Source: Opitutales bacterium | Lineage (GTDB): Bacteria; Verrucomicrobiota; Verrucomicrobiia; Opitutales; Oceanipulchritudinaceae | Assembly: GCA_007133065.1 (NCBI GenBank) | Contig: SLNJ01000019.1 | Location: 67,502-131,501, forward strand | Reading direction: 5' to 3' | Length of the DNA: 64,000 nt | Part shown: positions 2,731-52,315 of the stretch, piece by piece | Layout of the letters: each line of letters begins with the position of its first letter | Position numbering within the stretch: position 1 is the stretch's first letter | Notes under the pieces: generated by a model | Database searches by the model: none | The model's input: only the letters and a program-made list of their open reading frames with translations | What the model was told of the DNA's origin: nothing | Program-made: the position numbers and the translations under genes

Positions 2731-3139
2731 AACCTACATTGAGGTTCAGGCGGATTGCAGATTGTCGATAACATGGAGGCAGTGACGATGTTTAATGAGT
2801 TCTCAAAATTGATCTTTGAGCACGACGAACTGCTCAGATTTCAGTTTGAAAAGACGCTGCCTCTGTCGACACATCCGGTACCGGAGGTGTTTCGTGCGCC
2901 GGGGTCGCTCTCCAATCCGGCGGAGTCGGAGCAAGAGTCGGAGAGGGGTTGAATGGGGGCTATTTCATCTGGGCGTTGGTATGCCCTCGGTGGGGGAGCC
3001 GCCCTGTTGGAGCCTTCAGGTCGCTCGAGGCGCCGATACGCCCCGCACGCTGAAGCGTGAACCAACCGAAACGCCCAGATGCATCAGCCCCGTGGTACCG
3101 GACTTGTCATCCGTGCCGAATTCACCCACCGTGGCGCGA

Positions 3140-4075: not shown

Positions 4076-4139
4076 CGACCGGAAATTCCAGCGACGGGAA
4101 TCTGCCGCCTGGTATTGCCGGCCGGAACCCGACACGGTC

Positions 4140-23864: not shown

Positions 23865-25444
23865 AGCGGCACCCCCGCGTCGAGTTCGAGGACGAAAGTG
23901 AACTGCAGGATTCCGTGCCGGTCGGTGTCGAATCGTCGTTCGTGAACGCGGGCGACGGAGGGGGATTGTTCGATAAGCGCGAGGAGACGGTTGACCCGGC
24001 GCTGCGTGTGGATGCTGACCCGTTCGAGCGGATTCTCACGGTCGAGCATACGTCCTTCAACCCTGAGGCGTCGGCCGCTCGGGCTCGTCGCATCCACGGT
24101 TCCTCCGGTGCGGGGCGCGTCGAATTCATCCGGGGTGTCGGTGAACGCGAGACTGTCGAGCCAAACATCCTCGATTGCGCTCATGTGGTCCTGGAGTTCG
24201 ACCAGCAGGCGTATCCAGCTGTGGCGCACCTCCATCAGGTGCTGCAGGCCGGCGATGTCGGACTTCAGGGATTCGATCTCGCCGAGGGTGCGATCGATTT
24301 CAGGTTTGAGTGCAGCAAGTGGTTCCGCCCGGGCTTGCGCCTCGCGCACGCCTCCCTCGAGGTGCGCGAGGATCTGTTGGCCGCGCCAGGCCGGAAGCAC
24401 TGCGGCAAGCGCGCAGAGCGTTGCCGCACCGAGCAGGATCCGCGCTGTTTGGCTCCGGCGCATGCGCCCGGACAATTCCGCCGGCGTCAGATCGATTGCA
24501 ATCGAATCATCGAGCAGCGCGGCTGCCGCATGTCCGATCATCGCACCCGGCAACGGCCCGCATTCGGCCAGGTGGTCGCGGTCGAGATGCGCTCCGCAAT
24601 CGATCCGCCGCAGGGGGTCGAATTGCTCGACCGGGAGCCGGATGCGCGTTTCGAGTGACTCCACGAGTGCGGGACAGACCGTTCCCGGGAGGTCGGTGAT
24701 GATTCGCTCGGGCCGCAGTTCCGCGTGGAGGCGCCGGTTGGCGGCAACGGAGTGCTCGACTTGCCGGGTCAGGCTTTCGACGTACTCATCAGGCGGTTCC
24801 GGCGTTGCATGGCCGCGGCCGAACGGAAGCGTCCGGGTGAGAAATCGGTTGCCTGCGATCCATATCAAATGCGTATTCCGGGTCTCCGCGATGACCAGGA
24901 GCGCCGGCCCCTCCGCGTCCGGATAGTTGAATCGATACGCATTGCAGTAGAGGGGAAGGGTGACCGCGGTTGTTTGGGGGCGAAAGCGTCGTTGCGCGCA
25001 GCGGCTCCAGGCCTGTGATATTGCTGTGCGCTCGACTGCGAATACGACGGTATCGAGATCGATACCGTCGTCCGATACAACGTGGTAGTCCCAGTAGCAT
25101 TCCTCGAGGGAGTGCCTCAAGAGGCGTTCGGCTTCATACCGCACCCCTTCGGTTTGCCGTGACGGATCAACAATGGGCGTGGAAACCCGTGCCGTGTCAA
25201 CCTGGCAATCGGCTACGATGAGCGCGCGATCGGTAGCACCGAAGCAGGGATTCCTCCGCGTGAGCCGGCTCACGATCGCTGCCGGATCCGGCGTTAGCGC
25301 CGCCTGATCGCCGGAGTCGACCGGGAACGAACCGGAGGCCTCGAACGCGTCCAGGCGGATTCTGTCGGCGGTGCACCGATGAACCGCGGCGCCCACAAAG
25401 CCTCCCGCCCAGCAGCCGAGAATCAGCATCCTCCCCCTCGTCAT
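23861..25444 (-). CDS. PilM-like actin-fold protein fused to a PilN-like TM/coiled-coil module
   Basis: 527 aa. The first ~330 aa have a PilM/FtsA-like layout. Then a TM helix (ARILLGAATLCALAAVLPAW), a coiled coil (LGEIESLKSDIAGLQHLM) and a PilN-like C-terminal domain. ATGA overlaps on both sides. Confidence 0.6.
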   Translation of the reverse strand: MTRGRMLILGCWAGGFVGAAVHRCTADRIRLDAFEASGSFPVDSGDQAALTPDPAAIVSRLTRRNPCFGATDRALIVADCQVDTARVSTPIVDPSRQTEGVRYEAERLLRHSLEECYWDYHVVSDDGIDLDTVVFAVERTAISQAWSRCAQRRFRPQTTAVTLPLYCNAYRFNYPDAEGPALLVIAETRNTHLIWIAGNRFLTRTLPFGRGHATPEPPDEYVESLTRQVEHSVAANRRLHAELRPERIITDLPGTVCPALVESLETRIRLPVEQFDPLRRIDCGAHLDRDHLAECGPLPGAMIGHAAAALLDDSIAIDLTPAELSGRMRRSQTARILLGAATLCALAAVLPAWRGQQILAHLEGGVREAQARAEPLAALKPEIDRTLGEIESLKSDIAGLQHLMEVRHSWIRLLVELQDHMSAIEDVWLDSLAFTDTPDEFDAPRTGGTVDATSPSGRRLRVEGRMLDRENPLERVSIHTQRRVNRLLALIEQSPSVARVHERRFDTDRHGILQFTFVLELDAGVPL

Positions 25445-26214: not shown

Positions 26215-27651
26215 CTACTGGATCGGGGAGAAAAGGCGGGCGATGCGCACGGCGAGGCGGAACCAGACCGGGCGTCTGCGGTATTCATCGACCCCGACTG
26301 GGCGGGCGCTTTCGAAGTCCTTTATCAACATGGCTTCGACCTCGCGGACGAAGCGTGGATGCGAGAAGAGAAGCGTGAGTTCGAAGTTGATTCGAAACGA
26401 ACGGTTGTCGAGATTGGCGGTGCCGACGCTGGCGAGTCGGTCGTCGATGAGCATGACTTTCTGGTGCAGAAACCCCGGTTGATAGCGGTAAAACTTCACG
26501 CCGGCCCGTATGGCGGATTCAAAATAGGAGAAGGCGGAGAGATAGACGAGGATATGGTCCGGCTTCGACGGAAGGAGGATGCGCACATCGACATCGCGCA
26601 GGGCGGCGCAGATGAGGGCGGATTCGACCGCCTCGTCGGGGACGAAATACGGGCTCGTGATCCAGAGCCGATTGCGGGCGGTGTTGATGGCATGGACGAA
26701 GAAGAGGCCGCAGGTGTCCAGTTCATCGGATGGGCCGGTGGGAACCACCAGGATGTCGTTTGCGGCCTCCGGCAGGGGCCTGGGGGTCCAGTCAAGGGTT
26801 GGAACCCGACCTGTTGCCCAGTACCAATCCTCCAGGAAGCTGAGCTGAATCGCCTGCACGGACGGGCCGCGAACGGCGACATGGGTGTCGCGCCAATGCC
26901 CGAATTTCCGGCTCTCTCCGAGGTACTCGCGTCCCACGTTGTGCCCCCCGACGTACGCGACGCGGCCGTCGGCGATGACAATCTTGCGGTGATTGCGGAA
27001 GTTGAGCTGAAACCGATGGGCCCGGCCCTTGGTGGCTTTGAAACCGCTCACTTCGACGCCGCTGCGGCGCAATGTTTCGAGATAGCGAGCCGGAAGTTTG
27101 CGGCTTCCGATGCCGTCGTAGAGGAAGTAGACACGGACCCCGGCACGGGCGCGGGCCGCCAGACATTCCCGCAACCGGTGTCCGACCGCGTCGTCTTTGA
27201 TTGTGAAAAACTGTACGAGCAGATAATCGTGTGCCTCCTCGATCCCTGCGAATATTGCGTCAAACGTCGCCTTCCCGTCGACCAGGAGATCGGCCTGATT
27301 TCCGGTGCTGAAGGGCATCTGAGCGAGCTTCGAGAACGAGCGAAGGTCGGGGTGGTCGATGTCCGCCAGCACCGATTGCGCGGCGGCGCGTTGGTGCAGA
27401 TCCCGTGCGATGTGGTGGATCTCCAGGTTCCCGCTCCTGCGCGCGGCGACGTGCCCGTGGAAGCGATGGCTCCCGAATATCCAGTAGAGCGGGAGAGCGA
27501 GCCACGGGAAGAAGAGGAGAGAAAGCGTCCATGCAATGACCCCCTGCGTGTTCCGCCCTTTCATAATGACGTGCACACACGAGCCGATCGCGAGAAGTTC
27601 AACAACCAGATACGCGACACTGTAGATCCAGAATATATTGTCGATCGACAT
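26215..27651 (-). CDS. cls: cardiolipin synthase (PLD superfamily)
   Basis: 478 aa. Two N-terminal TM helices and two HKD motifs (HRKIVIADGRVAYVGGHNVG; LHQKVMLIDDRLASVGTANLDNRS). Confidence 0.9.
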   Translation of the reverse strand: MSIDNIFWIYSVAYLVVELLAIGSCVHVIMKGRNTQGVIAWTLSLLFFPWLALPLYWIFGSHRFHGHVAARRSGNLEIHHIARDLHQRAAAQSVLADIDHPDLRSFSKLAQMPFSTGNQADLLVDGKATFDAIFAGIEEAHDYLLVQFFTIKDDAVGHRLRECLAARARAGVRVYFLYDGIGSRKLPARYLETLRRSGVEVSGFKATKGRAHRFQLNFRNHRKIVIADGRVAYVGGHNVGREYLGESRKFGHWRDTHVAVRGPSVQAIQLSFLEDWYWATGRVPTLDWTPRPLPEAANDILVVPTGPSDELDTCGLFFVHAINTARNRLWITSPYFVPDEAVESALICAALRDVDVRILLPSKPDHILVYLSAFSYFESAIRAGVKFYRYQPGFLHQKVMLIDDRLASVGTANLDNRSFRINFELTLLFSHPRFVREVEAMLIKDFESARPVGVDEYRRRPVWFRLAVRIARLFSPIQ

Positions 27652-33554: not shown

Positions 33555-36500
33555 TCAGCGTTCGATCCACTCGGACCGGGAGAAGGACCAGAAGTGGCGG
33601 GCGCCGGCGATCGCGGCGGCGAAGTAGAACCAACCCGGATCCCCGAAGCTGAAGAAATATGGGAAGTGTTCGGACGAGGACCAGACCCAGCCGAACGCAG
33701 CGTCCCAGTACCAGAGCTGTTCGGGCGCGGCTTCGGCGAAGTAGATCCAACCGAGTTCCATGTGCCGAACCCACGGATAGTAGGCGAGCTCCACCGTGCC
33801 GAACCACTCCGCGTGGTATCGGTTGTCTTCGGTTCGAGAGAAGTCGTCCCAGGCCGATCCCGGCGGCCACGGGTTGAGCTCGGTCGCCGTGGCGGTGATA
33901 TTGTCAAGGCGCAGCTTCGCGCGGGGCCCCGAGGTTCCGGTCGGCTCGTAGTGGTACCGCCACGCCACCTGAACGTACGGGCGCCCGAGCATTTCTTCCG
34001 GGAGTGGAATTCCGCTGATGTGTTGCGCGTCTCCGGCGATTGCGGAGCGGGTGTACAGAATGGGATCGCCCTCGGGATCGGTGAAATCGAAAAAGGGTCC
34101 GGTGCTTTCGAGGCGGTATTGCAGGCGTAGGTGGTAGACGCGGTTGTTGGGAAGAACGGTGCCGCCGGTCCATTCGAGCTCGGCCGCGCGCACCCCGCGT
34201 GTATCGAGAGCGAGGATTGCGGCCCCGACATACGCGGCGCCGGGAGCATCCTGGGCGTTGGTGGTATTGATAAATCCGAGACCATCGGAGTCGAGCCCCA
34301 CGATCCGGCTCCGGCTTTCAAGGTTGTACGGAAGCGCCCAGGCGCCGGCGAGCGCGGCGGTCGGCCCCGGATCCGGACCGGCGAGCTGAAGCAAGCGCAT
34401 GTGCGGAGGGTACGTTCCGGGATCGGCGTCCGCGGGCCACACGGCGAAGGTGTACGGCGCGTCGGCGAGCCGGTGGGGTGCGGGTTCGAAGGCTGTGGGA
34501 TCCGGGTCGAAGCGCGCGGACAGCACAGGGACCGCCGCCGGGTCGATTGCAATCACCGGGTCGTTGTGATCCGGGAATTCTTTCCACTCGGCAAATCGGA
34601 ATCCGGGGTTCGGCCGGGCCTCGACGGTTACGGGAACCCCGTGAAAATACGATCCGGACCACGGGTATGGTGAGGCCGGATCGGCCAGTCCGAAGGAATC
34701 GCCGTTGATTTCCACGGAGTTGATTCGGAGTGTTCCGCCTTCCGGGTCGCTTACGTCGAACGTGATGTCGGAGCGTCCGGCGAGATCGAAGAAGGCTTCA
34801 ATATGGTCGAAGAGGTGGCCGGGGCGCTGCTCGGCGAAGGCGCGCATCGATATTCGCGAGGCAGCGGGTCCCCTGGTGGTGCTTTCGGGATCGGGGAAAA
34901 TGGACGGCCAGCGCTCGATGTGTTCGTCCACCTCGGGTGCGATCCGTTCCTGGAACTCCTCGAGAAGGGCGGTGGCCCGGCGGGAATGGAATGCGGTGTT
35001 CAACTGGTCGGCGAACCGCGAGATGAAATCGTGGCGAAAGGTGTCGTTGCGCAGGAGGCGGCGGAAGGGCATCGTCGCCCAGGGAGGGTTCGGCCAGTCT
35101 TGATTGGCGTCTGCATAGCCCGATGTCGGACCGTCCGGTTTCGCCGCGAAGCTGAGGGTGTCGAAGTCGGGTTCGTGGAACTGGCGCCATCCGGTATGGA
35201 GGTGCAGGCTGTACCCGAAATCCGTGTCGACGAGCAGCCATCGGAAGCGCCCGTCGAAGGGCGGCCGGATATCGGGGTCGAAGGGCGTGCGCACCCGCCA
35301 GTAATCCATGTTGTTGCTCGGCCAGTCGGTGTTGTTGAGGTAGATGTTGGCGATGTGGAGGTCGATGAAGTTCCCGAGGTCCATCATCGTTCGAATTGTT
35401 TCATACACCTCCGGATCCGCGGGGTCTTCCTCCTCCAGTGTTGCGAGGAGAGCGTCGTAGTGCGCCCGGTTTCCCTCCTTGATGATCCGTTGCACGTTGA
35501 TCTGATGGGCGAGGAGATCGATGTTGTCGGGGTCGATCTCGTGGACGCGTTCGAGGTAGTGCCGGTCGTACCGCTCCCGGATGTTCTGGATCCCCCAGTA
35601 TTCCCCGTTGATAAAGACGATGGACGGTCGATATGCCTGGGTGTCGAAGCGCAGGTGCCCGACCAGCGTCTGATGGAAGGCGTCGCGAAAGTGGGCGTGC
35701 CTGTAGTCCTGTCCACTGTTGCGCAGAATCAGGCGATTGTAGCTCTCGTACGGCTGATCCGGGAAGATGCGGTAGTTAAAGCGCGAGGGACCGTAATCCC
35801 GGCGCGCGTAGAGGCGGAGTGATTTCAGCGGGTATTTGCGGCTGGCGTTTCCGTGGATCCGCGCTCCGGCACCCTGGCTGAGCACGCGCCGGCCGTCGGT
35901 CTCAAACATCTCCAGGTGAATCGGGCGTTCCCAGTTGCGCCCGCGCCTGCGCCAGTTCGGGGTGCTTCCGTCGCCGTGCACGTAGATGCCGGAATCGCTG
36001 GAAAAGAAGTGCGCCGCATCCGTGGAAATCGATAGGACCGGAAAGGAGTAGCGATCGTGGCGTTCCGGGCCGATCAGGTAGGTGCCTGTGGCGGTTGCGC
36101 TCGGCAGTGCCTCCTCGCCGAACGCACGCACGCGAACAACAGTGGCTTTCTGAACGGGGTCTTCGGGAGTACGCCAGTCCCCGTTCGGCGCGATCGTGCG
36201 AATCGGGGTCAGTTCATCCGGCTCGAAACTGCGATCGTAGACCACGATGGGCGACTCCGGGTCGAACCGCGGCGAGGTCTCGGTTGGTTTTGACCCGTCC
36301 AGGGTATATCGCAGGGTAACCGCGCTGTCCGTGGTATGAAGGTGCAGTTCGATCGGCTGACCGTAGTACCCCGGCGCGTGCGAGAAGAGCGGGGCGCTGA
36401 GCAGTCGCTCGTACCCGGTGTCGGAGTTGGGTTGCAGGGGCGTGGGTTCGTCGAAGTACCGCCAGGAGTCCGTACCGTCCGGTGCCCTGCCAAAACTGAT

Positions 36501-36959
36501 ATCGCGAGGGATGCGGGTGGGGGGCAGGGAATCCGCCTCGGAATCGTCGGGACGGGTCAGGAGGATTTCCTCTCCGGTCCACGCGATGCTGAAATTCGTG
36601 TGCAGCGATGCTTCGGGGTCGGACCGGTCCTTGCCGGAGGCCCATACGAGCAGGTGCTCTCCCGGCGGGATGACGATGTCGGGAAAGACCCACCGGAACG
36701 GCCGGTCCCGGTCATCCGAAAGCCCCCAGCCGGCGAGCGAGATGGCATCCGCACCGGCATTGTACAGTTCGATCCAGTCCTCGTAGTCGCCGTCGTCATC
36801 CGCGATGGTCCGGCCGTTCGAAGCCATTGTCTCGTTGAGCAAGACCGTCGCGTAACCGGAAAACGGGTAAATCAGGCACGCGAAGAGAGCAATGGTACGA
36901 AGCGGGGCGGGGATGCAACAGAAGCGCAGCCTGCAGGCTTTGGGGATGCCGGGAAGCAT
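33555..36959 (-). CDS. large secreted CotH-kinase-family protein with N-terminal lamin-tail (LTD) domain and aromatic-repeat C-terminal tail
   Basis: Start taken at internal ATG 36959 (signal-like MLPGIPKACRLRFCCIPAPLRTIALFACLIYPFSG). LTD region: DYEDWIELYNAGADAISLAGWGLSDD...FPDIVIPPGEHLLVWASGKD. CotH region: LRNSGQDYRHAHFRDAFHQTLV...VFINGEYWGIQNIRERYD. Confidence 0.8.
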   Translation of the reverse strand: MLPGIPKACRLRFCCIPAPLRTIALFACLIYPFSGYATVLLNETMASNGRTIADDDGDYEDWIELYNAGADAISLAGWGLSDDRDRPFRWVFPDIVIPPGEHLLVWASGKDRSDPEASLHTNFSIAWTGEEILLTRPDDSEADSLPPTRIPRDISFGRAPDGTDSWRYFDEPTPLQPNSDTGYERLLSAPLFSHAPGYYGQPIELHLHTTDSAVTLRYTLDGSKPTETSPRFDPESPIVVYDRSFEPDELTPIRTIAPNGDWRTPEDPVQKATVVRVRAFGEEALPSATATGTYLIGPERHDRYSFPVLSISTDAAHFFSSDSGIYVHGDGSTPNWRRRGRNWERPIHLEMFETDGRRVLSQGAGARIHGNASRKYPLKSLRLYARRDYGPSRFNYRIFPDQPYESYNRLILRNSGQDYRHAHFRDAFHQTLVGHLRFDTQAYRPSIVFINGEYWGIQNIRERYDRHYLERVHEIDPDNIDLLAHQINVQRIIKEGNRAHYDALLATLEEEDPADPEVYETIRTMMDLGNFIDLHIANIYLNNTDWPSNNMDYWRVRTPFDPDIRPPFDGRFRWLLVDTDFGYSLHLHTGWRQFHEPDFDTLSFAAKPDGPTSGYADANQDWPNPPWATMPFRRLLRNDTFRHDFISRFADQLNTAFHSRRATALLEEFQERIAPEVDEHIERWPSIFPDPESTTRGPAASRISMRAFAEQRPGHLFDHIEAFFDLAGRSDITFDVSDPEGGTLRINSVEINGDSFGLADPASPYPWSGSYFHGVPVTVEARPNPGFRFAEWKEFPDHNDPVIAIDPAAVPVLSARFDPDPTAFEPAPHRLADAPYTFAVWPADADPGTYPPHMRLLQLAGPDPGPTAALAGAWALPYNLESRSRIVGLDSDGLGFINTTNAQDAPGAAYVGAAILALDTRGVRAAELEWTGGTVLPNNRVYHLRLQYRLESTGPFFDFTDPEGDPILYTRSAIAGDAQHISGIPLPEEMLGRPYVQVAWRYHYEPTGTSGPRAKLRLDNITATATELNPWPPGSAWDDFSRTEDNRYHAEWFGTVELAYYPWVRHMELGWIYFAEAAPEQLWYWDAAFGWVWSSSEHFPYFFSFGDPGWFYFAAAIAGARHFWSFSRSEWIER

Positions 36960-37189
36960 GGTCGAATCGGGAATACGAGCTAAAAAAGGGATTCCATTAT
37001 GAAACGATACGCTTTGGATGGCAAGCGCGGTACGGGACCGGAAAAATGTGCTCGTCATCGCCAACGGGGATCTTAGCTTGCAGATTTCACAGATCCGGAT
37101 CGCTCCGGCGAGCGACCCGAAGCCGGCGTCTCATCGTGGAACAGGAAATCCCCAGCACCCGCCTGAGTGGCAGAACATCATGGTCTCCG

Positions 37190-37984
37190 ATGACCCTGGT
37201 CCGGAATCGGCACCTCTTGTGGCAGTTTATCCTGCGCAATATCGAGGTACGGACGAAGGGCAGTTACCTCGGGACCCTCTGGCTCGTGCTCAATCCATTG
37301 ATGATGATGGGACTGTACACGCTGGTGTTCGGGGTTATCGTGGGGAGTCGATTCGGGGTTATGGAGGACGAGACCGGGCTCGATTTCGCCCTCGGAGTCT
37401 TTCTCGGGATCACCATTTTCAACCTTGTCTCGGAAATATTCGGAGCCTCGCCGACGATTATCGTGCAGAATGCCAACCTCGTAAAGCGCGTGGTGTTTCC
37501 GCTGGAAGTGTTACCGGTGGCGGCCGTCGGCTCGGCGTTCTATCACTTTCTGATCACGCTGGCGCTCAGTCTGGGCGGCATCCTGGCATTCGGGCCGCCG
37601 CTGACGGCGGCGGTGTTGTGGTTTCCCGTAATCATCCTGCCGATATTCCTGATCGTGCTCGGTATGGGCTGGCTGTTCTCTGCTTTGGGGGTCTATTTCA
37701 GGGATTTGCAGCACCTCACGAGCTTTTTCTCGCTCGCTTTCTTCTATGCAAGCGGAATTTTCTTCTCCGCCCAGACGGTCAAGGAGCGCGCACCCGAGGC
37801 GTGGGTTTTTCTGAAGTGGAATCCGTTCCTGCACGCCATTGAGTTGACCCGTGATATTCTTTTGTGGGACGTGCCGGTAAGCTGGCAGCCGCTTTTGTAT
37901 CTGTACGTCGTCGGCCTGGTGTCATGCGCGACGGGGTACGCGGTCTTCGTATGGCTGCGCCCGCAGTTCGCTGATGTAATTTGA
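37190..37984 (+). CDS. ABC-2 type polysaccharide/teichoic-acid export permease (Wzm/TagG/KpsM-like)
   Basis: Internal ATG 37190. LWQFILRNIEVRTKGSYLGTLWLVLNPLMMMGLYTLVFG. About 6 TM helices. No ATPase partner next to it. Confidence 0.8.
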   Translation: MTLVRNRHLLWQFILRNIEVRTKGSYLGTLWLVLNPLMMMGLYTLVFGVIVGSRFGVMEDETGLDFALGVFLGITIFNLVSEIFGASPTIIVQNANLVKRVVFPLEVLPVAAVGSAFYHFLITLALSLGGILAFGPPLTAAVLWFPVIILPIFLIVLGMGWLFSALGVYFRDLQHLTSFFSLAFFYASGIFFSAQTVKERAPEAWVFLKWNPFLHAIELTRDILLWDVPVSWQPLLYLYVVGLVSCATGYAVFVWLRPQFADVI

Positions 37985-38085: not shown

Positions 38086-39303
38086 CTATTGTATAAACCG
38101 GCTCTCGGCGGCGATTCGTTCCCAGAGGCGCGTGACGTTGCGGTGCAAATCGAACTCCCGTTCGACCCATGCGCGGGCGGTTTGTTGGATCTTCCTATAG
38201 TGGTGGTCGTCCTCCTGAATTCGGCGCAGCGTTTTGACCCATGCGCAGGGCTCACTCGCGGAGAGCAGGCACCCGGATTCTTCGTGCTGCACCGCTTCCG
38301 GGATGCCGCCGACGGGAGTGCTGAGCACGGGAACGCCATGACCCATCGCCTCGGCAATCACGTTGGGCAAACCGTCGCGATCTCCTTTTGCGGCGATCAT
38401 TCCGGTAAAAATGAATACATCCGCCCAACGATAGGCCTCCTCGACCTCCGAATACGGGCGGGCGCCTTCGAGGGTAACGGTATCCGCGAGATCGAGACGT
38501 ACGATTTCGCGTTCGAGTGTGCTGCGCATCGGACCGTCTCCGAGAATACGGACCGCGATCTCGATTCCTGCATCCCGTACGGCGGCGTGTATCCTGAGTT
38601 GGTTGAGAAACCCCTTCTTCTCGACGAGTCTACCGACGCTGAGCAGGCGGAGGGGGCGACGCCGGCCCCGCGGATCGGAAAGCGCCGGCAACTGAGGGAG
38701 TCCCCGCCGGATCCGGTGCACGCGCTCGGGCGGCGCGCCGAGTGCCTGGAGGCGGCGCACGCCGGCTTCGGTCGAGGTGCGAACGAACCGGCAGTGCCGA
38801 AGCTTCTCCCGCATCAACCAATCCCCGCCGTCATCGAACAGGTCGTAGGCGTGAGCGGCCATACTCCACGGGATGTCGAGGGCGTCGCCGAGGAGCCATG
38901 CCACGGTAGCGGGCATCGATCCCCATACGGCGTGCAGGTGGGCGGGCGGGGCGCGACGGAGCCGCGGCAGCTGGTTCGCAGCGGCGCAGACTGCCCACAG
39001 ATTCTCACCCAGGTTCACCGGGTTGGGCGGCGACTCCTCCCAGAGTGCTTCGCTCCATCGGCGGAGGGGTCCTGGCTGGCGCGCCAGCCAGGGCCAGAGG
39101 GCTGGGAACCCGCGGGCGAAGGTCATCATCCGGCCCGGCGCGTGGACGGGATATCCTTCGAACTGCGTGGCGCCCCCCCAGAGGGAAATCAGCTCGATTG
39201 GCCGATTCTGGGCGAGCAACGCACGCACCTCGCGCTGAAGAAACGTCTCCGTGGCGACCGGAAACCGCGTGAACAGGAAAATGGTGCGACGTGAATCCGT
39301 CAT
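38086..39303 (-). CDS. family 4 (GT-B) glycosyltransferase, WcaL-like
   Basis: Internal ATG 39303 (MTDSRRTIFLFTRFPVATETFLQREV...). C-terminal DGLPNVIAEAMGHGVPVLSTPVGGIPEAV. 4-nt overlap with the upstream gene. Confidence 0.8.
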   Translation of the reverse strand: MTDSRRTIFLFTRFPVATETFLQREVRALLAQNRPIELISLWGGATQFEGYPVHAPGRMMTFARGFPALWPWLARQPGPLRRWSEALWEESPPNPVNLGENLWAVCAAANQLPRLRRAPPAHLHAVWGSMPATVAWLLGDALDIPWSMAAHAYDLFDDGGDWLMREKLRHCRFVRTSTEAGVRRLQALGAPPERVHRIRRGLPQLPALSDPRGRRRPLRLLSVGRLVEKKGFLNQLRIHAAVRDAGIEIAVRILGDGPMRSTLEREIVRLDLADTVTLEGARPYSEVEEAYRWADVFIFTGMIAAKGDRDGLPNVIAEAMGHGVPVLSTPVGGIPEAVQHEESGCLLSASEPCAWVKTLRRIQEDDHHYRKIQQTARAWVEREFDLHRNVTRLWERIAAESRFIQ

Positions 39304-40472
39304 GAATGGGCCAGCTCCTCGCCTCGGGTGACCAGAGCGCGGACGAATTCCTCGGGATGATCGGAGGCGCGCGTTGCGGCGATTCCCTCGCGCAGTTGCC
39401 GCATGCGATCGGGCGAGTCGAGCAGGCCGGCGACCGCCCGGGCGAGCTCTCGATCGCTGGAAAACGAGAGGGCTGCTCCTTTCGAACTGAGGTAGCGAAC
39501 GGTGAGGCGTTCCTGCGGCATGATCGATCGGACGAAGAAGAGGATGGGGCAACCCGTGAACACGGCCTCGGCCGCCAGGTTGGCACCGCCGCGTGCCACG
39601 ACGAGGTCGGCGGCCTGCAGGAGTTGCGGGACGCGACGGCTATGTCCCTTGACCGAGGTTCGAAGCGCTCCGCTTCTGTTTTCGGACCACGCCGCAACCC
39701 GCGACAGGAGCCGCTGGTTGTGTCCGCAGATGACGATCACCTGGATCCGGTCGGCGAAGGGGCGCAGGGTCTCGAGGTGGGCGATGTGGCGGTTTGCGCC
39801 GACGGCGCCTGTAGCGAGCAGGATTGTGAAACGATCGGGAAGGAGGCCGAGTTCGTCCCTCAGGAAGCGGCTCCGGGCGTCGCTGTCCATTGGGGGTGCC
39901 AGTGCGTGAGGAGCCAGGAAGTTCTGGAAGCGGCGGGCTTTGGCAGCGGGAAGCCCCAAGGCGAGCGCATGGCGCTCCGCTTCCGCAGTCCGCGAGTAGA
40001 AGAGGTCGACGTGAGGGGAGATCCAGATCCGGCTGTACCCGAAGCCGCCGCTGAACTCGCCGCAATAGGTCGCGCAGCAGACGCGGTCGCCGAACATCCG
40101 TCGAGCCACGTCGAAGTAACCCCGGTTTGTGCTGTCGTGGACGCTGAGGATCACGTGTGGCTGCCAGCGCTGCAGCAGTGCGGTGAAATAGCCTCCGCCC
40201 CATCCAAGACCGCGTCCCTGCATCATCCCGAAGAGTTCGGCGATATACCAATAGATATTGTGCAGCGCAGGGGCGTGTCGCTGGATCGTGTTGTAGGTCC
40301 ACACGCCAAAGCGGGTCAACCGGGAGGAGTTTTCCAGAATGTGTTCGACGTGTACCGTCACCCGATCGCCGTAGAGGCGGCGCACCCATTCCTGGAAGGC
40401 ATACGCCCTTTGATCGTGTCCTCCCCCTGTGCTCGAGGTCAGGATTAGAATACAGGGATCGGTCGGGGGCAT
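39300..40472 (-). CDS. MGDG-synthase-like / GT28-family diacylglycerol glycosyltransferase (UgtP-like)
   Basis: 390 aa. ILILTSSTGGGHDQRAYAFQEW is an N-terminal MGDG_synth-type motif. The C-terminal half is GT28-like (VVARGGANLAAEAVFTGCPILF). Confidence 0.75.
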   Translation of the reverse strand: MPPTDPCILILTSSTGGGHDQRAYAFQEWVRRLYGDRVTVHVEHILENSSRLTRFGVWTYNTIQRHAPALHNIYWYIAELFGMMQGRGLGWGGGYFTALLQRWQPHVILSVHDSTNRGYFDVARRMFGDRVCCATYCGEFSGGFGYSRIWISPHVDLFYSRTAEAERHALALGLPAAKARRFQNFLAPHALAPPMDSDARSRFLRDELGLLPDRFTILLATGAVGANRHIAHLETLRPFADRIQVIVICGHNQRLLSRVAAWSENRSGALRTSVKGHSRRVPQLLQAADLVVARGGANLAAEAVFTGCPILFFVRSIMPQERLTVRYLSSKGAALSFSSDRELARAVAGLLDSPDRMRQLREGIAATRASDHPEEFVRALVTRGEELAHS

Positions 40473-40496
40473 GAGGCATGGGTGCGGCAGTGAGAA

Positions 40497-41765
40497 TCAA
40501 CCGGGCTGTTGGAAGACCAGCACCACGTTGGCGCCACCGAAGCCGCTGCTGTTGCTCATCATAGTCTCCACCCTGCGCGACACGCTCTCATGAACGATGT
40601 CGACGCCTTCCGCCTCGAAATCGAGATGAGAAATATGCGCGGATCCCGGGAGGAATCCGTGCCGCATGGCAAGGTTGCAGAAGGCCGATTCCATGATGCT
40701 GGAGAGGGAGAGGGCGTGACCGGTCAACGCCTTCGTGCTGCTCACCGCCGGGGTTTGATGCGCGCCGAACACCCGTTTGATGGCACGCAACTCCGAGATA
40801 TCACCCACGGGAGTTGAGGTTGCGTGGGCGTTAATGTAGCCGACGGCCCCCGGTTCTATGGCCGTCGCGTCCAACGCGTTCTGCATTGCGCGAGCGAGTC
40901 CGTCGCCGTCCGGATGCGAGGCGGCGACGTGGAAGCCGTCGCTCGCCTGGCCCCATCCCGAGAACCGGGTGTAGGGCGTCGTTCCGCGTGCCTCCGCGAT
41001 CTCCTCGGCCTCGAGGATCATCGCCACGGCCCCCCCGGTCCCCACAAATCCATCCCGGTCGCGATCGAAGGGGCGCGAGGCGGTGTCGGGGTCATCGGAA
41101 GGCGAGAGCACCCGCATGCTCACGAACGGCAGAATCGTCTCGACGCTGAAATCCTCCGCTCCGACGACCAGGATGCGATCCTGACGGCCCAGGGCAATCT
41201 CGTCACGTGCGGCTCCCAGGGCGTGGCCGCTGGACGCGCAGGCCGATACGAATCCGCTGGTCGATCCCTTGATCTTGTACGCCGCGGCAAGATTGAACGT
41301 CAACGTCCCTGCGATCGAGGCGACGATTCCGAGCGGCGAGCAGCGCTGGGGCCCGAACCGGATCATCCGGTCGAGATTGTAGTACATTCGCGACGGAGAC
41401 CCGGCGGATGCGGTGTAGAGTCCCGTCCGGGGATCGTTCACCTGATCGCGCGCCAACCCTGCATCCTCGAGGGCCTGGCTGAGTGCGTAGAACCCGTAGA
41501 CCCCGTGCGGCGGAAGCCCCCTCAGGACATCGAGCCGCAGTTTCAGGCCTTCCGGGTAGACCCAGTCCTCGGGGTCCTCGGCTGTGGTGTCGAATCCCGG
41601 AATCGGTGCTCCAACCCGGACGCCGCATTCGCGTTTCAAAAACGGTTCGTACCGTTGGATGCCGTGTCGGGATTCCTTGAGCCTGGAGACGACTTCCGAT
41701 TGATTCAGCCCAAGGCAGGATGCGAATCCCAGACCGGTTACGACGACGTTTCGCATAGAAGCCAA
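40497..41765 (-). CDS. beta-ketoacyl-ACP synthase (KAS I/II, FabB/FabF-like)
   Basis: 422 aa. RNVVVTGLG, active-site Cys (SACASSGHALG), His-His (INAHATSTPVGD; TKALTGHALS), GFGGANVVL. Confidence 0.9.
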   Translation of the reverse strand: MASMRNVVVTGLGFASCLGLNQSEVVSRLKESRHGIQRYEPFLKRECGVRVGAPIPGFDTTAEDPEDWVYPEGLKLRLDVLRGLPPHGVYGFYALSQALEDAGLARDQVNDPRTGLYTASAGSPSRMYYNLDRMIRFGPQRCSPLGIVASIAGTLTFNLAAAYKIKGSTSGFVSACASSGHALGAARDEIALGRQDRILVVGAEDFSVETILPFVSMRVLSPSDDPDTASRPFDRDRDGFVGTGGAVAMILEAEEIAEARGTTPYTRFSGWGQASDGFHVAASHPDGDGLARAMQNALDATAIEPGAVGYINAHATSTPVGDISELRAIKRVFGAHQTPAVSSTKALTGHALSLSSIMESAFCNLAMRHGFLPGSAHISHLDFEAEGVDIVHESVSRRVETMMSNSSGFGGANVVLVFQQPG

Positions 41766-41795
41766 CGCCTGGATGAGCCGGCCGCAACCGCCGGA

Positions 41796-42734
41796 TCACG
41801 GCAGGTGCGTGCCGTTGCTGCCATGGATTTTCTCGTCCACCGCGGCAGGGGCGGTTGTCGCGAAGGTGAGGGCGATTTCCTCCGCAAAGGCGACGCGCTC
41901 CCCGTTGCACTGGATGCTCCCTTCAAAAAACGCGAGGGGAGGGTGAACCTTCTTGAGCTTCACCTTCAAGTGCAGGAAATCTCCGGGCCGGCAGACCCGA
42001 TGGCACCGCACGCCGTCGCACCCGAAGAAGAATATCCGTCCTGGATCGACCTGCTCCTGCAGCATCTCATTCTGGCCGCGCAGGAGAAAGAGGACCGCCA
42101 GCTGTCCGAGCGCTTCCAGCATGATGGAGGCCGGAAAGATCGGATTGTCCTTGAAATGGCCTTCGAGGAACGCTTCATCCCCGTTGATCCGGTAGCTGCC
42201 CTCCGCATAGTCGTGGTTGAGCCGCGACTCCTGCAGGAAGAGGAACGGGTGCTGCTGCGGCATCACCGCGGCGATCTCCTCGAAGCCGAGCGATTTTTGC
42301 TTCTGCGGGAGCGGAAGTCCCCGGATCTTACAGTCGAGGTAACTCTTGATGTCCCCGAGCGTCCGCAAGCCCCGGAGTTCTTCGTTTTCGATCGAGATAT
42401 CCAGCGTCTCTTCGACGAGCATAATGATCTCCACCATCAGCAGCGAGTCGATTCCGAGATCCTCGAACAGACGGGTGGAATCATTGTTTTCGCGAACCGT
42501 CGGACGTACCTCGGGTTCAACGAAACGTTCGATAATCCCCAGGACGATCGTGGGAACAAGCTCCCAATCCTTGTTCTGGCGGTACGCAACGGCCGCTTCG
42601 ATCGTCTGTGGCGGGCAGCGCTTCAGCGCATCGCGTAGTTCGGTTTCGTTTGCTGTGGTTTTCAAGATTAAATCGGATTGGTGGTTGGGGGGAGAATCAC
42701 GAAGGCCACACCGTGACCACAGGCCCGGTTCCAC
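41796..42734 (-). CDS. fusion protein: acyl carrier protein domain + FabA/FabZ-type hotdog dehydratase domain
   Basis: N-terminal half: FEDLGIDSLLMVEIIMLVEE (phosphopantetheine Ser motif). C-terminal half: LEGHFKDNPIFPASIMLEALGQ...GDFLHLKVKLKK (FabZ HxxxxGxxxxP motif). The track start is GTG 42734; TTG 42665 is an alternative. Confidence 0.75.
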   Translation of the reverse strand: MEPGLWSRCGLRDSPPNHQSDLILKTTANETELRDALKRCPPQTIEAAVAYRQNKDWELVPTIVLGIIERFVEPEVRPTVRENNDSTRLFEDLGIDSLLMVEIIMLVEETLDISIENEELRGLRTLGDIKSYLDCKIRGLPLPQKQKSLGFEEIAAVMPQQHPFLFLQESRLNHDYAEGSYRINGDEAFLEGHFKDNPIFPASIMLEALGQLAVLFLLRGQNEMLQEQVDPGRIFFFGCDGVRCHRVCRPGDFLHLKVKLKKVHPPLAFFEGSIQCNGERVAFAEEIALTFATTAPAAVDEKIHGSNGTHLP

Positions 42735-43069
42735 TGCGATTCACGCCGAGGCCGGGTTTCGGAGGCAAATACATAAACCGGTGAATAAGATTTCAACCGC
42801 TCGGTGTAAACACCAAATTTCGACTCCGGAGGCATTTTTCAGAGGGTATGGGTAGCGATAAGTCGCGATCATTCATGGATTACGACAAAAACAGCACCGT
42901 TCAATTCGAGTTCGTTTCATGCCGCAGGATCATGCAGGATACGTTGGGAGGTCGGAATATCTCTTTATTGGCAGCATAGTGTCATTTTACGTGGGATGGC
43001 AAGCCTGACTTGGGAATCTTTTTGGTTCATTGGAGATTCTCGCGAATGATCAGAACATGGGAATGGTGA

Positions 43070-45163
<2,094 letters not shown>

Positions 45164-45456
45164 CGGGTGGTGCGGGAAATCGGCCGTGCGGTCGACCGCC
45201 GGAGATTGGTGCATGTGATACGCAAGCCCAATGGCCTCCGACCAGTTTTGAGACGACTGCACTGGATTGATGGAGCTCTTTCCCCGGGCATGTTTTCGTT
45301 GAGAGGCGCGCGGGCGATTTTTTCGGAACAATTCCATATGCCCGCTGCCTGAATCCAGAGGCGGGGCGATGCCCGGTCATGCACGACAGACGCTGGGAAT
45401 GCGGCATCTGTCTGAAGTGAAGACGAGTACAAAACAAAAACACGGAAACGAGATAT

Positions 45457-46068
45457 ATGAATCAGAATCGACTCAAATACACCATCCTTCCAATGGTTGC
45501 GGTTTTCGCTGCGGGCACGGCCTTGCATGTCGGGGCTCAACAGGCGCAGCCGGCGCCCGCTCCGCAGCAAGCGCCGGAAGTGGCTCCCGAAGTTCAGCAG
45601 GAACTGCAGGAAGTTCAACAGGAGCTCCAGCAAATCAACATGCAGATAAACTCCGTGCGCCAGGAGGCGAACCAGCGCGATGAAGTACAGAGCGCGCTGC
45701 TGGCATACGAACGGACCCTGAGTGAGAAGATGATCGAGATGGAGCCGGAGAAATCCGATGAAATCGAGCGCAAGCAGGAACTGGTGGAAGAGCTGGTTCA
45801 GATGGACGATTTCGAGAGTCTGAATGAAGAGGAGCGTCAGCAGTTCCAGACCTATCTGCAGGAGCACCAGGAACTGCGGCAGGGGCTCGCGGAAGTCGAG
45901 GCGCAGGCCGCACAGTCCGAGACCGCACAGCAGAAGCTGCAGGAAGTAAGCCAGATCCAGACGAACGTCATGGAGGAAATCAACCCGGACGTGCAATCAC
46001 TGGTTCAGCAGCAGAACGAGTTGCGTCAGAGGTTCCAGCAGCTGCAGCAGCAGATGCAGCAGCCTTGA
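45457..46068 (+). CDS. hypothetical secreted Gln/Glu-rich coiled-coil protein
   Basis: 203 aa. Signal peptide (ILPMVAVFAAGTALHVGAQQ), then heptad-like Q/E-rich sequence to the C-terminus (QQLQQQMQQP). Confidence 0.6.
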   Translation: MNQNRLKYTILPMVAVFAAGTALHVGAQQAQPAPAPQQAPEVAPEVQQELQEVQQELQQINMQINSVRQEANQRDEVQSALLAYERTLSEKMIEMEPEKSDEIERKQELVEELVQMDDFESLNEEERQQFQTYLQEHQELRQGLAEVEAQAAQSETAQQKLQEVSQIQTNVMEEINPDVQSLVQQQNELRQRFQQLQQQMQQP

Positions 46069-49108: not shown

Positions 49109-49168
49109 CGGGCTGCCGCACCGGATCGGCGTTGACGTTGTGTGTGCCATCGGTCAGAAGACAACGCG

Positions 49169-50215
49169 ATGATGCAGTACCAGACCACGATTTCGATTTC
49201 GGGCGACGACTTTTGGATTAATGATCGGCCGACTTATGCCGGTCGAACCTGGAAGGGCCATCGTATTGAGGGGTTGCTCATGAACAGCCGGATGGTGCAG
49301 GGGGTCTTCGACGACCTCAATCCGGAGACGCGGTCGCGCTGGGATTACCCGGATCGTCCGTGGGATCCGGACTACAACACGGACCAGTTCATCGCCCACA
49401 TGCCGCTCTGGCGGGAGCACGGGCTCCTCAGTTTCAACGTGAACCTGCAGGGCGGCAGTCCCCTCGGATACAGCAAGAGCCAACCGTGGCACAACTCAGC
49501 TTTTCGGGAGGACGGCTCGTTGCGGCTCGAATATCTGAAACGGCTTCAGCGCATCCTCGATCGCGCTGATGCACTCGGTATGGTCCCGCAGGTCGGATTC
49601 TTCTATTTCGGACAGGATCAGCGTTTCAACGACGAGGCGGCCGTGATCGCCGCGACCGATGCGGCGACGGACTGGTTGCTCGGGCGCGGTTACACGAATC
49701 TTCTGGTCGAGATCGTGAACGAGGCGAATGTCGCTTACACGATGGAGATTCTCAAAGAGAATCGCGTGCACGAGCTGATTGCTCGCGTGCAGGAGCGTTC
49801 CGAGGGCAGGGTGGAAGGTTCCGCGGGCCGGCTTCTGGTCGGTGCGAGCATGAGCGGGAACCACATCCCTCCGGAGGGCATCGTCCGGACGGCCGATTTT
49901 CAGCTCCTGCACGGAAACAGCGTCGGGGATCCGAACCGCATCCGTGAAATGGTCCGTGAGGTGCGCGCCCTTCCCGAATACGGAGGCGAGCCGGTCGTGT
50001 TCAACGAGGACGATCACTTCGACTTCGACAAGCCGGACAACAACATGATCGCTGCAGTCAGCGAGCACGCGAGCTGGGGATTCTTCGACTATCGCATGAA
50101 AGAGGAGGGGTTCGAAGAAGGGTACCAGAGCGTGCCGACCGACTGGGGCATAAACAGCGAGCGCAAGCGCGGGTTCTTCAACCTGCTCCGGGAGATGACG
50201 GGCGGAGGGGGGTAG
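49169..50215 (+). CDS. putative clan GH-A (GH5-like) glycoside hydrolase
   Basis: ATG 49169. TIM-barrel-like pattern with LLVEIVNEANV (Asn-Glu acid/base motif) and a later VVFNEDDH. Tentative. Confidence 0.5.
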   Translation: MMQYQTTISISGDDFWINDRPTYAGRTWKGHRIEGLLMNSRMVQGVFDDLNPETRSRWDYPDRPWDPDYNTDQFIAHMPLWREHGLLSFNVNLQGGSPLGYSKSQPWHNSAFREDGSLRLEYLKRLQRILDRADALGMVPQVGFFYFGQDQRFNDEAAVIAATDAATDWLLGRGYTNLLVEIVNEANVAYTMEILKENRVHELIARVQERSEGRVEGSAGRLLVGASMSGNHIPPEGIVRTADFQLLHGNSVGDPNRIREMVREVRALPEYGGEPVVFNEDDHFDFDKPDNNMIAAVSEHASWGFFDYRMKEEGFEEGYQSVPTDWGINSERKRGFFNLLREMTGGGG

Positions 50216-50275: not shown

Positions 50276-51646
50276 TCAATCCTCCGGAGGATGATCGGCG
50301 CCCGGTTCGTCCGGTTCGCGGACGTATTCGATGACGCGGGTCGGTTCCATTTGGCCGAGCAGAAGGCGCCGCGTTGATTCGGGGATGTAAGGATCGTCCT
50401 CAAGGTAGTTGCGGGCGGTTTGCGCGTCGCGCTCCATCCAGTACTGTCCCACCACCATCACCATGAACTCGCTCTCGGTTGGGTCGGTGATCGAGTGCGC
50501 CCACCCCATGGCGATCGCGGGATCGGTTTCCATGGCAGCGAGGGCGACCGACTGCACCGCGGCATCGAAGTCGGGGTGAAGTTCGAGCTCGTTGAGCCAC
50601 TGCGCGGCCGGAACGACCCCTTCGTGATCGATCCAGGAGCTGACCGCCTCCTCCAGAGCTGCTGCGCGGACCGGCCCCTCGGGCAGCTCATGAGCCCAGC
50701 TTGCGGCTGTCTTCGGGTCGAACTGTGACCACGCTCGTGCAATATGCTGGCGTGCAAGCGCGCGCAGGTCGCCGTCCCCCTGACTGTTGGCCCAGTCGAT
50801 GGCCTCGTGCGGATCGTAGCGTGCCCACATTCCCAATACATGGGCAACGGTTTCCATTCGGACACGATCGTCGGGCAAATCGGCAAGTTGGGCGAGGACG
50901 GCTTCGGGCGGAATGCGCTTGAGCTCGGTGCGGGCGATCGAGCGCATGGCCTCGGAGCGGTACCGCTGCGAGGCGATCGATGAGGCAAGTGCCATCGCGA
51001 GTTCGGAATCGTATTGCGCGACATGCTCGAAAATCGCCTGGTATCGCTGCTGCCGGACATCCTCCGAACCACTGCGCTCCTGCACCCACTCCCAGGCGGA
51101 GATCGGATCGTCTTCAGCCCAGCCACGCAGGACGGCTGCGACCGCCGCCTCGCGGTCCCAGTCCCCCCGGTCGGCGAGAACGTACGCGAGCGCGGATCGA
51201 CCGTCCATCCCGGCCCACTGCTGCAGGAAGACCAGGAACGCTTCCTCACGCAGCGGGCCGCGCGGGAGTGTCTGGAGAAAGGCGATCGTTTCCACGATCT
51301 GGCGCTGGCTCAGTTCCGAGGCGATTCGCTGGGCTTTATAGGCGCGCTGCACGTTGTCGCGCACCCGCAGCAGTCCGCTCAGTGCATTGCGAAAGTTTTC
51401 GTCGAGTCGGCCGTCGGCTTGCCGGGTGATCGATCGAACCGGGGCGCCGGCGAGCCGTTCCAGAATGAGTCCGATCTCGGCTTGGTGGAGTGTGGCTTCG
51501 TCCCGTCCCGTCCAATCCTGGCGGTCGAGGCCGCGGAAGAACGCGATCCCCGCGAACAGACCCATTGCGAAGAAAATGCCCAGGGTCACGATCCAGGCGA
51601 CCCCGATGAAAGCAGGTGTATAGCGTGAATTTCTCACGGCACTCAA
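50276..51646 (-). CDS. hypothetical membrane-anchored helical-repeat protein
   Basis: 456 aa. N-terminal TM (FIGVAWIVTLGIFFAMGLFAGIAFF). About 8 degenerate repeats of the form ...W..DP..A..W... (e.g. VLRGWAEDDPISAWEWV, LGMWARYDPHEAIDWAN, ARAWSQFDPKTAASWAH). Confidence 0.6.
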   Translation of the reverse strand: MSAVRNSRYTPAFIGVAWIVTLGIFFAMGLFAGIAFFRGLDRQDWTGRDEATLHQAEIGLILERLAGAPVRSITRQADGRLDENFRNALSGLLRVRDNVQRAYKAQRIASELSQRQIVETIAFLQTLPRGPLREEAFLVFLQQWAGMDGRSALAYVLADRGDWDREAAVAAVLRGWAEDDPISAWEWVQERSGSEDVRQQRYQAIFEHVAQYDSELAMALASSIASQRYRSEAMRSIARTELKRIPPEAVLAQLADLPDDRVRMETVAHVLGMWARYDPHEAIDWANSQGDGDLRALARQHIARAWSQFDPKTAASWAHELPEGPVRAAALEEAVSSWIDHEGVVPAAQWLNELELHPDFDAAVQSVALAAMETDPAIAMGWAHSITDPTESEFMVMVVGQYWMERDAQTARNYLEDDPYIPESTRRLLLGQMEPTRVIEYVREPDEPGADHPPED

Positions 51647-51713: not shown

Positions 51714-52235
51714 TCACGGGATTCGGCCTTCGTCGAAGTCGATCATGTCGCAGAAATTGTGCAAATCCTTGCGGTGACTGATTTCCATGCGTTTTTTCGC
51801 GGCGTCGAGCGCCTCCTTGCCGGTGTCGCTCATTCCTTTCAGGATGAGTTCCCGATTCCATTTCGCCACGCGCAGATCCTCCGGAAAAAGCGCCATCAGG
51901 CGCCGGTCCCGTTCCTGGTCCGACTCGCTCTCCCGAACGGCGGAGATGACTTCCTGCGGGTCTACGCCGAGGTGAAGACACAGGAATCCATCGAAACCCT
52001 TGGTGAAATTGCGTTGATACGACTTGGGCAGTTTGCCGTCCAGGTGCTTTCGGATCTTCGCGAGAAAACGGGGCAGGTGAAGCAGTCCACATGCATGGGG
52101 GATATAGGGCGAGGGCAGGTCGGTGAGCACTTCGCCGGTGTCCGGGCGCGTGGGGGGGCGCGGTGATGCAGCGTTGGGCGGAAGCGGGTTCGATGGCATG
52201 AGGGGCAGACTGTGCGATCCACTTGGAAGGTGCAA
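51714..52235 (-). CDS. hypothetical protein (DUF5069-like by recollection)
   Basis: 173 aa (alternative start M13). CGLLHLPRFLAKIRKHLDGKLPKSYQRNFTKGFDGFLCLHLGVDPQEV. Confidence 0.45.
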   Translation of the reverse strand: MHLPSGSHSLPLMPSNPLPPNAASPRPPTRPDTGEVLTDLPSPYIPHACGLLHLPRFLAKIRKHLDGKLPKSYQRNFTKGFDGFLCLHLGVDPQEVISAVRESESDQERDRRLMALFPEDLRVAKWNRELILKGMSDTGKEALDAAKKRMEISHRKDLHNFCDMIDFDEGRIP

Positions 52236-52315
52236 TCGTAATCATGCTGGCGTCGAGGGATCTTGTCGCAGTTCCGACTGGCGCAAACGGAAAATCCTCC
52301 CATATTGTGCACCCC

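Follow-up and report, generated by a model that had tools for sequence, protein, structure and literature searches.

Which lipid is made by a bacterial operon that joins an acyl carrier protein (ACP), a dehydratase and a ketosynthase (KS) to two glycosyltransferases? The question is raised by four minus-strand genes in a 64,000-nucleotide stretch of an Opitutales genome (Verrucomicrobiota; assembly GCA_007133065.1, contig SLNJ01000019.1, positions 67,502 to 131,501 of the forward strand); the whole stretch is here called the window, and coordinates refer to it unless another locus is named. In order, the genes encode an ACP–FabZ-type dehydratase fusion (41796..42734), a FabB/F-type KS (40497..41765), a UgtP/MGD1-like lipid glycosyltransferase of family GT28 (39300..40472) and a group 1 glycosyltransferase of family GT4 (38086..39303). 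Their product is very likely a glycolipid, and on this point the sequences uphold the initial annotation of the locus. The best reading is that the operon represents half of a glycosphingolipid-like pathway, and not a route to the diacylglycerol glycolipid that the initial annotation had in mind; that it is the local copy of an Opitutales-wide module, providing a glycosphingolipid-like envelope lipid with its tail and its first sugars, has in our estimate about even chances of being correct.

The four genes, their spacing and their overlap were confirmed at the coordinates first assigned, and the corrections concern start codons alone. The first three genes are separated by gaps of 30 nt and 24 nt, while GT28 and GT4 are joined by a 4-nt ATGA overlap at 39300-39303, with a GAGGAG motif 12 nt 5' of the GT4 ATG. 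For the fusion, the database gene call P0001 (289 aa) starts at TTG 42665 and not at GTG 42734, the start chosen in the initial annotation; for KS, homologues begin with MRNVVVTGLG at ATG 41756, which may be the true start in place of TTG 41765; for GT4, the longest open reading frame (ORF) extends to 39552, and ATG 39303 is the start with better support. The identical gene order is seen again in dozens of species-level genomes, so the arrangement is not due to chance, and the four genes are a single operon and one real conserved unit. A 604-aa plus-strand ORF opposite the fusion and KS genes (40824-42638) was rejected as a gene, being a shadow ORF typical of high-GC DNA; orthologous shadow ORFs occur in other loci.

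The first protein combines a PP-binding domain (Pfam, E 2e-8) with a FabA-like hotdog domain (E 3e-16). An AlphaFold2 model (pLDDT 85) consists of two extra helices, a four-helix ACP bundle and a hotdog domain whose top Foldseek matches are FabZ structures, with a TM score of about 0.9 on the target. The two N-terminal helices bear an LKRC motif that is conserved among the aligned relatives. Alignment also places the phosphopantetheine site at Ser74, in a DSL motif, and the catalytic pair at His170 and Glu184; the acid is thus the Glu of FabZ and not the Asp of FabA. The FabZ His and Glu, the DSL serine and the LKRC stretch are kept in the aligned relatives, and a search of protein-cluster representatives recovered full-length fusions as distant as 33% identity. 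Among these representatives (P0280-P0390), many stand-alone proteins of 110-180 aa match just the LKRC helices and the ACP, and stand-alone dehydratases of about 150 aa match just the C-terminal half; the fusion therefore occurs in split form too. The second protein carries both halves of the ketoacyl synthase fold (Pfam ketoacyl-synt N, E 3e-26, and C, E 2e-29) and an intact Cys-His-His triad, visible in alignment as SACASSGH, HATSTPVGD and GHAL. Among solved structures it matches FabB (3oyt, 4e-77) more closely than the best FabF (2e-65), and by its sequence it is an elongating beta-ketoacyl-ACP synthase, slightly nearer FabB than FabF.

One genome per species was scanned for the fusion, and at least 577 genomes encode it. 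The homologues bearing an organism name belong to Verrucomicrobiota, order Opitutales; the best 80 loci are all titled Opitutales, Opitutaceae, Puniceicoccaceae or unclassified Verrucomicrobiota. Partners were counted by tblastn mapping of the window proteins onto 61 loci, all non-redundant and each with 6 kb or more of downstream sequence. KS follows the fusion in 56 of the 61; an orthologue of GT4 comes after the module in 49, including loci devoid of KS and GT28; GT28 is found in 46, always together with KS or with a short-chain dehydrogenase/reductase (SDR), which lies between KS and GT28 in 26 loci. Two close relatives (L086, L087) repeat the layout of the window, from ligA through fusion, KS, GT28 and GT4. 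Co-conservation of the four genes, on which the initial annotation had made its proposal depend, is thus observed.

The same survey revealed a fifth partner, missed in the initial annotation: in 33 of the 61 loci the module has, at a distance of no more than 10 kb, a gene for an alpha-oxoamine synthase (AOS) resembling serine palmitoyltransferase (SPT). Its best solved relatives are the Sphingobacterium SPT structures 8guh and 3a2b (1.7e-87, 297 bits), compared with about 220 bits or less for KBL/BioF-type enzymes and 186 bits for cysteate acyltransferase; the lysine that binds pyridoxal phosphate and the histidines align with those of the solved relatives. In the closest species-level genome (L006, 76% identity) ligA is followed by fusion, AOS and GT4 on one strand, AOS taking the place of KS and GT28 of the window. 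In L091 and L092 the order fusion-KS-GT28-GT4 is followed by an ABC-2 permease gene and then by AOS. Elsewhere the two parts are found at different sites of one genome: the metagenome-assembled genome (MAG) GCA_033762955.1 combines the exact architecture of the window (L086) with an AOS orthologue on a different contig (L090), and the Oceanipulchritudo E05-032 MAG has the module at L021 and, on a separate locus (L089), an AOS placed after GT4.

Some neighbours of AOS were noted in particular lineages. A GT9 heptosyltransferase-like gene, present in 9 of the 61 loci, follows AOS in L001 (13473-15748), L024-L027, L029, L033 and L047; the two genes overlap or abut in most of these, with a gap of about 45-200 nt in L029 and L047. 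In Oceanipulchritudo sp. E05-032 (L089, 8702-17608) two sulfotransferase genes and a Wzm/Wzt-type ABC transporter are found close to the GT4-AOS pair, a hint that in some lineages the glycan of the lipid may carry sulfate and be exported through an ABC-2 system. In the cultured Puniceicoccus vermicola (L088, 10001-15546) AOS immediately precedes bamA-skp-lpxD in the same orientation, an outer-membrane biogenesis context; neither fabZ nor lpxA follows lpxD at this locus.

The module is also retained in two small genomes of ciliate endosymbionts, those of Ca. Organicella extenuata (158 kb) and Ca. Pinguicoccus supinus (163 kb) (PMC8204192). In both endosymbionts at least three GT4 genes, a hypothetical gene, AOS, fusion, KS and GT28 succeed each other on one strand, and the published supplementary table lists these genes (Org646_00018-00025 and Ping_00179-00185) as three GT4, a hypothetical protein, "BioF homolog", "ACP + FabZ", "FabB" and "GT28 UgtP homolog" (PMC8204192). 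Its authors assigned the fusion and KS to type II fatty acid synthesis (FAS II), the glycosyltransferases to lipopolysaccharide (LPS) biosynthesis and AOS, as a BioF homologue, to the genes of unknown function, proposing no joint pathway (PMC8204192). When the Organicella locus is translated with genetic code 4, identity to the window proteins is 40% for the fusion, 47% for KS and 37% for GT28, and its AOS is 54% identical to that of Opitutaceae; a third code-4 contig (L094) displays the same gene order. The 452-aa hypothetical protein of the endosymbionts has no Pfam match, and tblastn found no match to it in the window or in any locus. According to the same authors, these genomes still encode FAS II, eight glycosyltransferases and the activation of sugars (heptose, galacturonic acid (GalA), colitose), and neither glycerol-3-phosphate acyltransferases nor Kdo2-lipid A genes were found (PMC8204192). 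Retention of the cluster in such genomes argues for a sphingoid rather than a diacylglycerol anchor, and retention of heptose activation agrees with the presence of heptose in the head group of this lipid.

The GT28 protein brings a diacylglycerol lipid to mind. It matches Glyco_tran_28_C (29.7 bits, cut-off 22) and, below threshold, MGDG_synth (22.1 bits, cut-off 25); only two PDB entries match its sequence, a processive diacylglycerol beta-glucosyltransferase (9wde, 5e-18) and plant MGD1 (4wyi, 1e-12), and its best NCBIfam model is a diglucosyl-diacylglycerol synthase. The GT4 protein (Pfam Glycos_transf_1, E 4e-25) is less informative: its best NCBIfam matches, EpsE and WcaL, are far under their cut-offs, and matches to BshA and PimB in the PDB are weak. 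An unusual acyl chain could accordingly be imagined to enter diacylglycerol, on which GT28 and a digalactosyldiacylglycerol-synthase-like GT4 would build a mono- or diglycosyl-diacylglycerol membrane lipid; the absence of AOS from the window agrees with this, as does the pairing of GT28 with GT4, which mirrors that of MGD and DGD in plants, where members of the same two families (MGD1, as well as bacterial UgtP, and DGD1/2) act serially on a two-tailed lipid alcohol. The similarity to UgtP/MGD1 is however low, the NCBIfam match reaching 94 bits for a cut-off of 500, and no acyltransferase or thioesterase was seen that could pass the chain from ACP to glycerol. Moreover, what recurs as an additional partner is the SPT-like AOS, not a Pls-type enzyme, and this AOS would be left without a role. 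Finally, the GT28-containing cluster is kept where acyltransferases that produce phosphatidic acid are reported to be lacking, so that the GT28 acceptor is likely not diacylglycerol. A diacylglycerol product, as assumed in the initial annotation, is for these reasons unlikely, and the sphingoid anchor is preferred.

A different question is whether the elongation proteins are private at all. The initial annotation held that they are not part of general FAS II, and this stands for the ACP and KS, less clearly for the dehydratase. NCBIfam scores are far under the cut-offs for the housekeeping enzymes, both for the fusion (FabZ 67 bits, cut-off 113; ACP 42, cut-off 71) and for KS (FabF 322 bits, cut-off 494; FabB 318, cut-off 630), and Organicella possesses a separate fabG-acpP-fabF besides the cluster, which makes the ACP and KS of the latter paralogues of AcpP and FabF. 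The fusion, by contrast, is the sole FabZ listed by the authors in the endosymbionts, with no second fabZ, and was counted by them in FAS II. It is therefore conceivable that the fusion represents the FabZ of the lineage and KS its partner for general or unsaturated fatty acids, in the manner of fabA-fabB, the glycosyltransferases being mere neighbours. The very wide conservation of the fusion, the adjacency of dehydratase and KS, as for fabA and fabB, and the proximity of KS to FabB in the PDB are all compatible with such a function. No canonical AcpP, FabZ or second KS was found in the window or in the roughly 20 kb searched per relative genome, and this is too little sequence to be informative. 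Several observations speak against a housekeeping role, besides the low scores and the Organicella paralogues: the catalytic acid is not that of FabA, the catalytic His is lost in the Organicella copy, and several loci have no KS, the fusion being followed directly by GT4 or AOS. In addition, start and stop codons that overlap or lie close together tie these genes to the glycosyltransferases and AOS over deep divergence. The housekeeping or semi-housekeeping explanation is thus considered distinctly unlikely.

Private ACP, FabZ and KS paralogues in the same order are known from the Rhizobiales acpXL-fabZXL-fabF1XL-fabF2XL-lpxXL cluster, which takes ketoreductase and enoyl reductase from FAS II and delivers its product to an outer-membrane glycolipid (PMC5613085). 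Ketoreductase and enoyl reductase are likewise absent here, and a corresponding lipid A module would be in line with the GT9 heptosyltransferase-like genes of some lineages, with the presence of lpxB in the window and with the bamA-skp-lpxD genes adjoining the Puniceicoccus AOS. In the Rhizobiales cluster, however, ACP and dehydratase are separate, there are two KS instead of one, and the partners are lipid A enzymes instead of an SPT-like AOS and GT28/GT4. No acyltransferase of the LpxXL/LpxL type was found in the operon, its flanks or the loci examined; furthermore, the cluster persists where genes for Kdo2-lipid A are reported to be lacking, and AOS would be given no role. A contribution to lipid A is hence very unlikely.

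The order ACP, dehydratase, KS is also that of Cfa1-Cfa2-Cfa3, and a glycosylated polyene or cyclic acid could be formed by an aryl-polyene-like or another type II polyketide synthase (PKS)-like route (Cfa1-3/Amc-like). The absence of an enoyl reductase from the cluster would suit such a route; precomputed ApeI-like Pfam matches are weak or faint, and the NCBIfam scores for AmcE (43, cut-off 140), AmcF (138, cut-off 325) and AmcB (21, cut-off 80) are all sub-threshold and are far exceeded by the FabZ and FabF/B models. The single KS retains its Cys, with no chain length factor, second KS subunit or second dehydratase beside it, and genes for an adenylating or loading enzyme, for an exporter of the LolA or MMPL type and for a type I PKS are all absent from the cluster. 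The resemblance to aryl-polyene and heterocyst-glycolipid clusters mentioned in the initial annotation is thus superficial, and this route is most improbable.

The domains, the catalytic residues, the conserved synteny, the linkage to AOS and the separate AcpP and FabF of a relative are shown by the sequences; the nature of the product, and each chemical step of the following scheme for the glycosphingolipid-like lipid favoured here, are inferred. KS would condense an acyl primer from FAS II with malonate on the ACP domain of the fusion, lengthening it by two carbons; the 3-keto group would be reduced by FabG in this organism, or in Opitutaceae by the SDR of the cluster, which could alternatively act as a 3-keto-sphinganine reductase. 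This SDR is present in Opitutaceae loci only and its match to KdsR is weak: the 3-ketodihydrosphingosine reductase model gives 86 bits (cut-off 400) and FabG 75. The fused FabZ domain would then dehydrate the chain in cis, enoyl reduction being optional, and the cycle may be repeated. In genomes with the architecture of the window, an SPT-like AOS encoded elsewhere would join the acyl-ACP to an amino acid, probably serine, generating a long-chain amino-alcohol base. Once a presumed N-acylation had taken place, GT28 would attach one sugar and GT4 a second; the ABC-2 permease encoded near the operon possibly serves for export of the finished lipid.

A number of observations count against this proposal. 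AOS is not present in the 64-kb window (tblastn), and for this genome the link comes via relatives; the best NCBIfam match of AOS is indeed serine palmitoyltransferase, but with 358-378 bits it lies well under the cut-off of 640. The solved or characterised relatives of GT28 all act on diacylglycerol. Among the neighbours of the module and of AOS that were examined, no ceramide-synthase-like or other acyltransferase was found, the candidates being unannotated ORFs only, and none is annotated in Organicella. In the Organicella fusion (L093, 10001-10801, P0391) the GHF motif with the catalytic His is gone in the alignment, and the precomputed Pfam match is to PP-binding only, so that the dehydratase is not universally required; the L094 fusion keeps the motif. 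The presence of lpxB in the window means that the lipid is no replacement for LPS in this organism, and no report of sphingolipids in Opitutales was found in the literature.

A private ACP that feeds Spt is known in Caulobacter and other Rhodobacteria, where the acyl group is brought by AcpR, a carrier that differs from AcpP and whose gene accompanies the sphingolipid genes, and downstream glycosyltransferases produce outer-membrane glycosphingolipids (PMC9386255). In the present system the ACP differs by two additional helices at its N-terminus and by being joined to a FabZ-type dehydratase in one protein, and the apparent loader is a FabB/F-type KS, instead of an acyl-ACP synthetase; the AOS of this system falls on the Bacteroidota-like SPT branch, under the NCBIfam cut-offs, and no homologue of bCerS or CerR was found in the neighbourhoods examined. 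Another non-canonical route is that of SgaAB(C) in Pseudomonas fluorescens MYb115, where long-chain sphinganines arise through a dedicated chain builder, an SDR and an AOS that has SPT activity (PMC12134224). SgaA is however an iterative type I PKS, while discrete type II proteins are found here, with the glycosyltransferases inside the operon. A further counterpart is the pair of endosymbiont clusters, which have orthologous fusion, KS and GT28 in the same order beside AOS and GT4. Literature searches on sphingolipids, lipid A and fabZ of Verrucomicrobia and Opitutales yielded nothing on the cluster except the Organicella genome paper; its genes were therein already annotated singly, and no paper treating them as one pathway was found.

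A bolder version of the proposal, which we advance tentatively and with some doubt, is that Opitutales make an LPS-like glycosphingolipid whose sphingoid base is produced by an undescribed type II machine (ACP–FabZ fusion, FabB-like KS and SPT-like AOS), and that this is the only envelope lipid left in the endosymbionts. Such a sole envelope lipid would explain the retention of FAS II, of eight glycosyltransferases and of the activation of heptose, GalA and colitose in genomes without genes for phospholipids or lipid A. In this version the fused dehydratase may leave a 2-enoyl-ACP, whose condensation would yield a 4-unsaturated base in one go, with no need of a desaturase. Sphingolipids are documented in Bacteroidota and Proteobacteria (PMC9386255), and no report for Verrucomicrobiota was found in the literature. 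If the proposal is true, a glycosphingolipid pathway would extend across an entire order whose members abound in soils, freshwater, the sea and gut-associated habitats. SPT would be loaded in a new mode, in which a KS and an ACP–dehydratase fusion take the place of an acyl-ACP synthetase or a PKS; and the retention of fatty-acid synthesis and many glycosyltransferases by endosymbionts without any known membrane-lipid pathway would receive a testable answer. The practical yield would be modest, consisting of a defined set of five to eight genes.

The operon is flanked by ligA (43085..45163), which is divergent from it, and on the other side by a gene for a Wzm-like ABC-2 permease (37046..37984, plus strand; Pfam ABC2_membrane, 4e-22, and a weak NCBIfam match to Wzm/RfbD permease), which is convergent with it and has no ATPase gene adjoining. 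Permease orthologues with 53-54% identity occupy the same position in L086, L091 and L092 and are absent from L087 and L006, so the association is limited to the nearest clade; the permease is a probable exporter of the operon product. Divergent from it is a gene for a 1169-aa CotH/LTD protein (33555..37064, minus strand) with LTD, CHB_HEX_C and CotH kinase-like domains, located where L091 and L092 have AOS. It is conserved beside the module in only one other locus (L013) and was rejected as a member of the system. Of the envelope-remodelling neighbourhood described in the initial annotation, the permease is accordingly retained and the CotH protein is not. Base composition gives no signal of horizontal transfer, the GC content being 0.63-0.66 in the operon and 0.58-0.66 in the remaining window.

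Upstream of the fusion gene, a putative promoter on the minus strand (42782..42812) consists of TTTACA (42810-42805), a 17-nt spacer and TATTCA (42787-42782). The longer motif TGTTTACA is found once in the window, at 42805-42812 on the minus strand (0.24 expected), about 140 nt 5' of the TTG start of the fusion. In 48 of 85 related loci TTTACA occurs in the 300 nt that precede the fusion gene, compared with 0.024 expected per 300 nt, and it is aligned in seven relatives; it resembles a -35 element and probably serves as a conserved -35 box or as an operator. An automated promoter and terminator scan gave weak matches only and selected other, weaker promoter sites at 43002-42956. An Rfam scan of the whole window returned no matches, and thus no known riboswitch or leader.

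Other genes of the window concern lipids as well. A Gfo/Idh/MocA oxidoreductase gene overlaps the 5' end of lpxB, encoding lipid-A-disaccharide synthase (2816-5339, plus strand), and genes for an MsbA-like ABC exporter (52223-54061, plus strand) and for a protein similar to phospholipase D/cardiolipin synthase (26215-27651, minus strand) are also present, indicating that the organism also makes lipid A and phospholipids. Sizeable ORFs with a coding-like third-position GC content and no Pfam match are found at 22950-25444, 45061-45996 and 50276-51646 on the minus strand and at 49142-50215 and 58116-61307 on the plus strand; for the three lying between 45061 and 51646 the NCBIfam scan likewise gave no match, and the Pfam-less set includes two genes adjoining a secretin gene (19655-22192).

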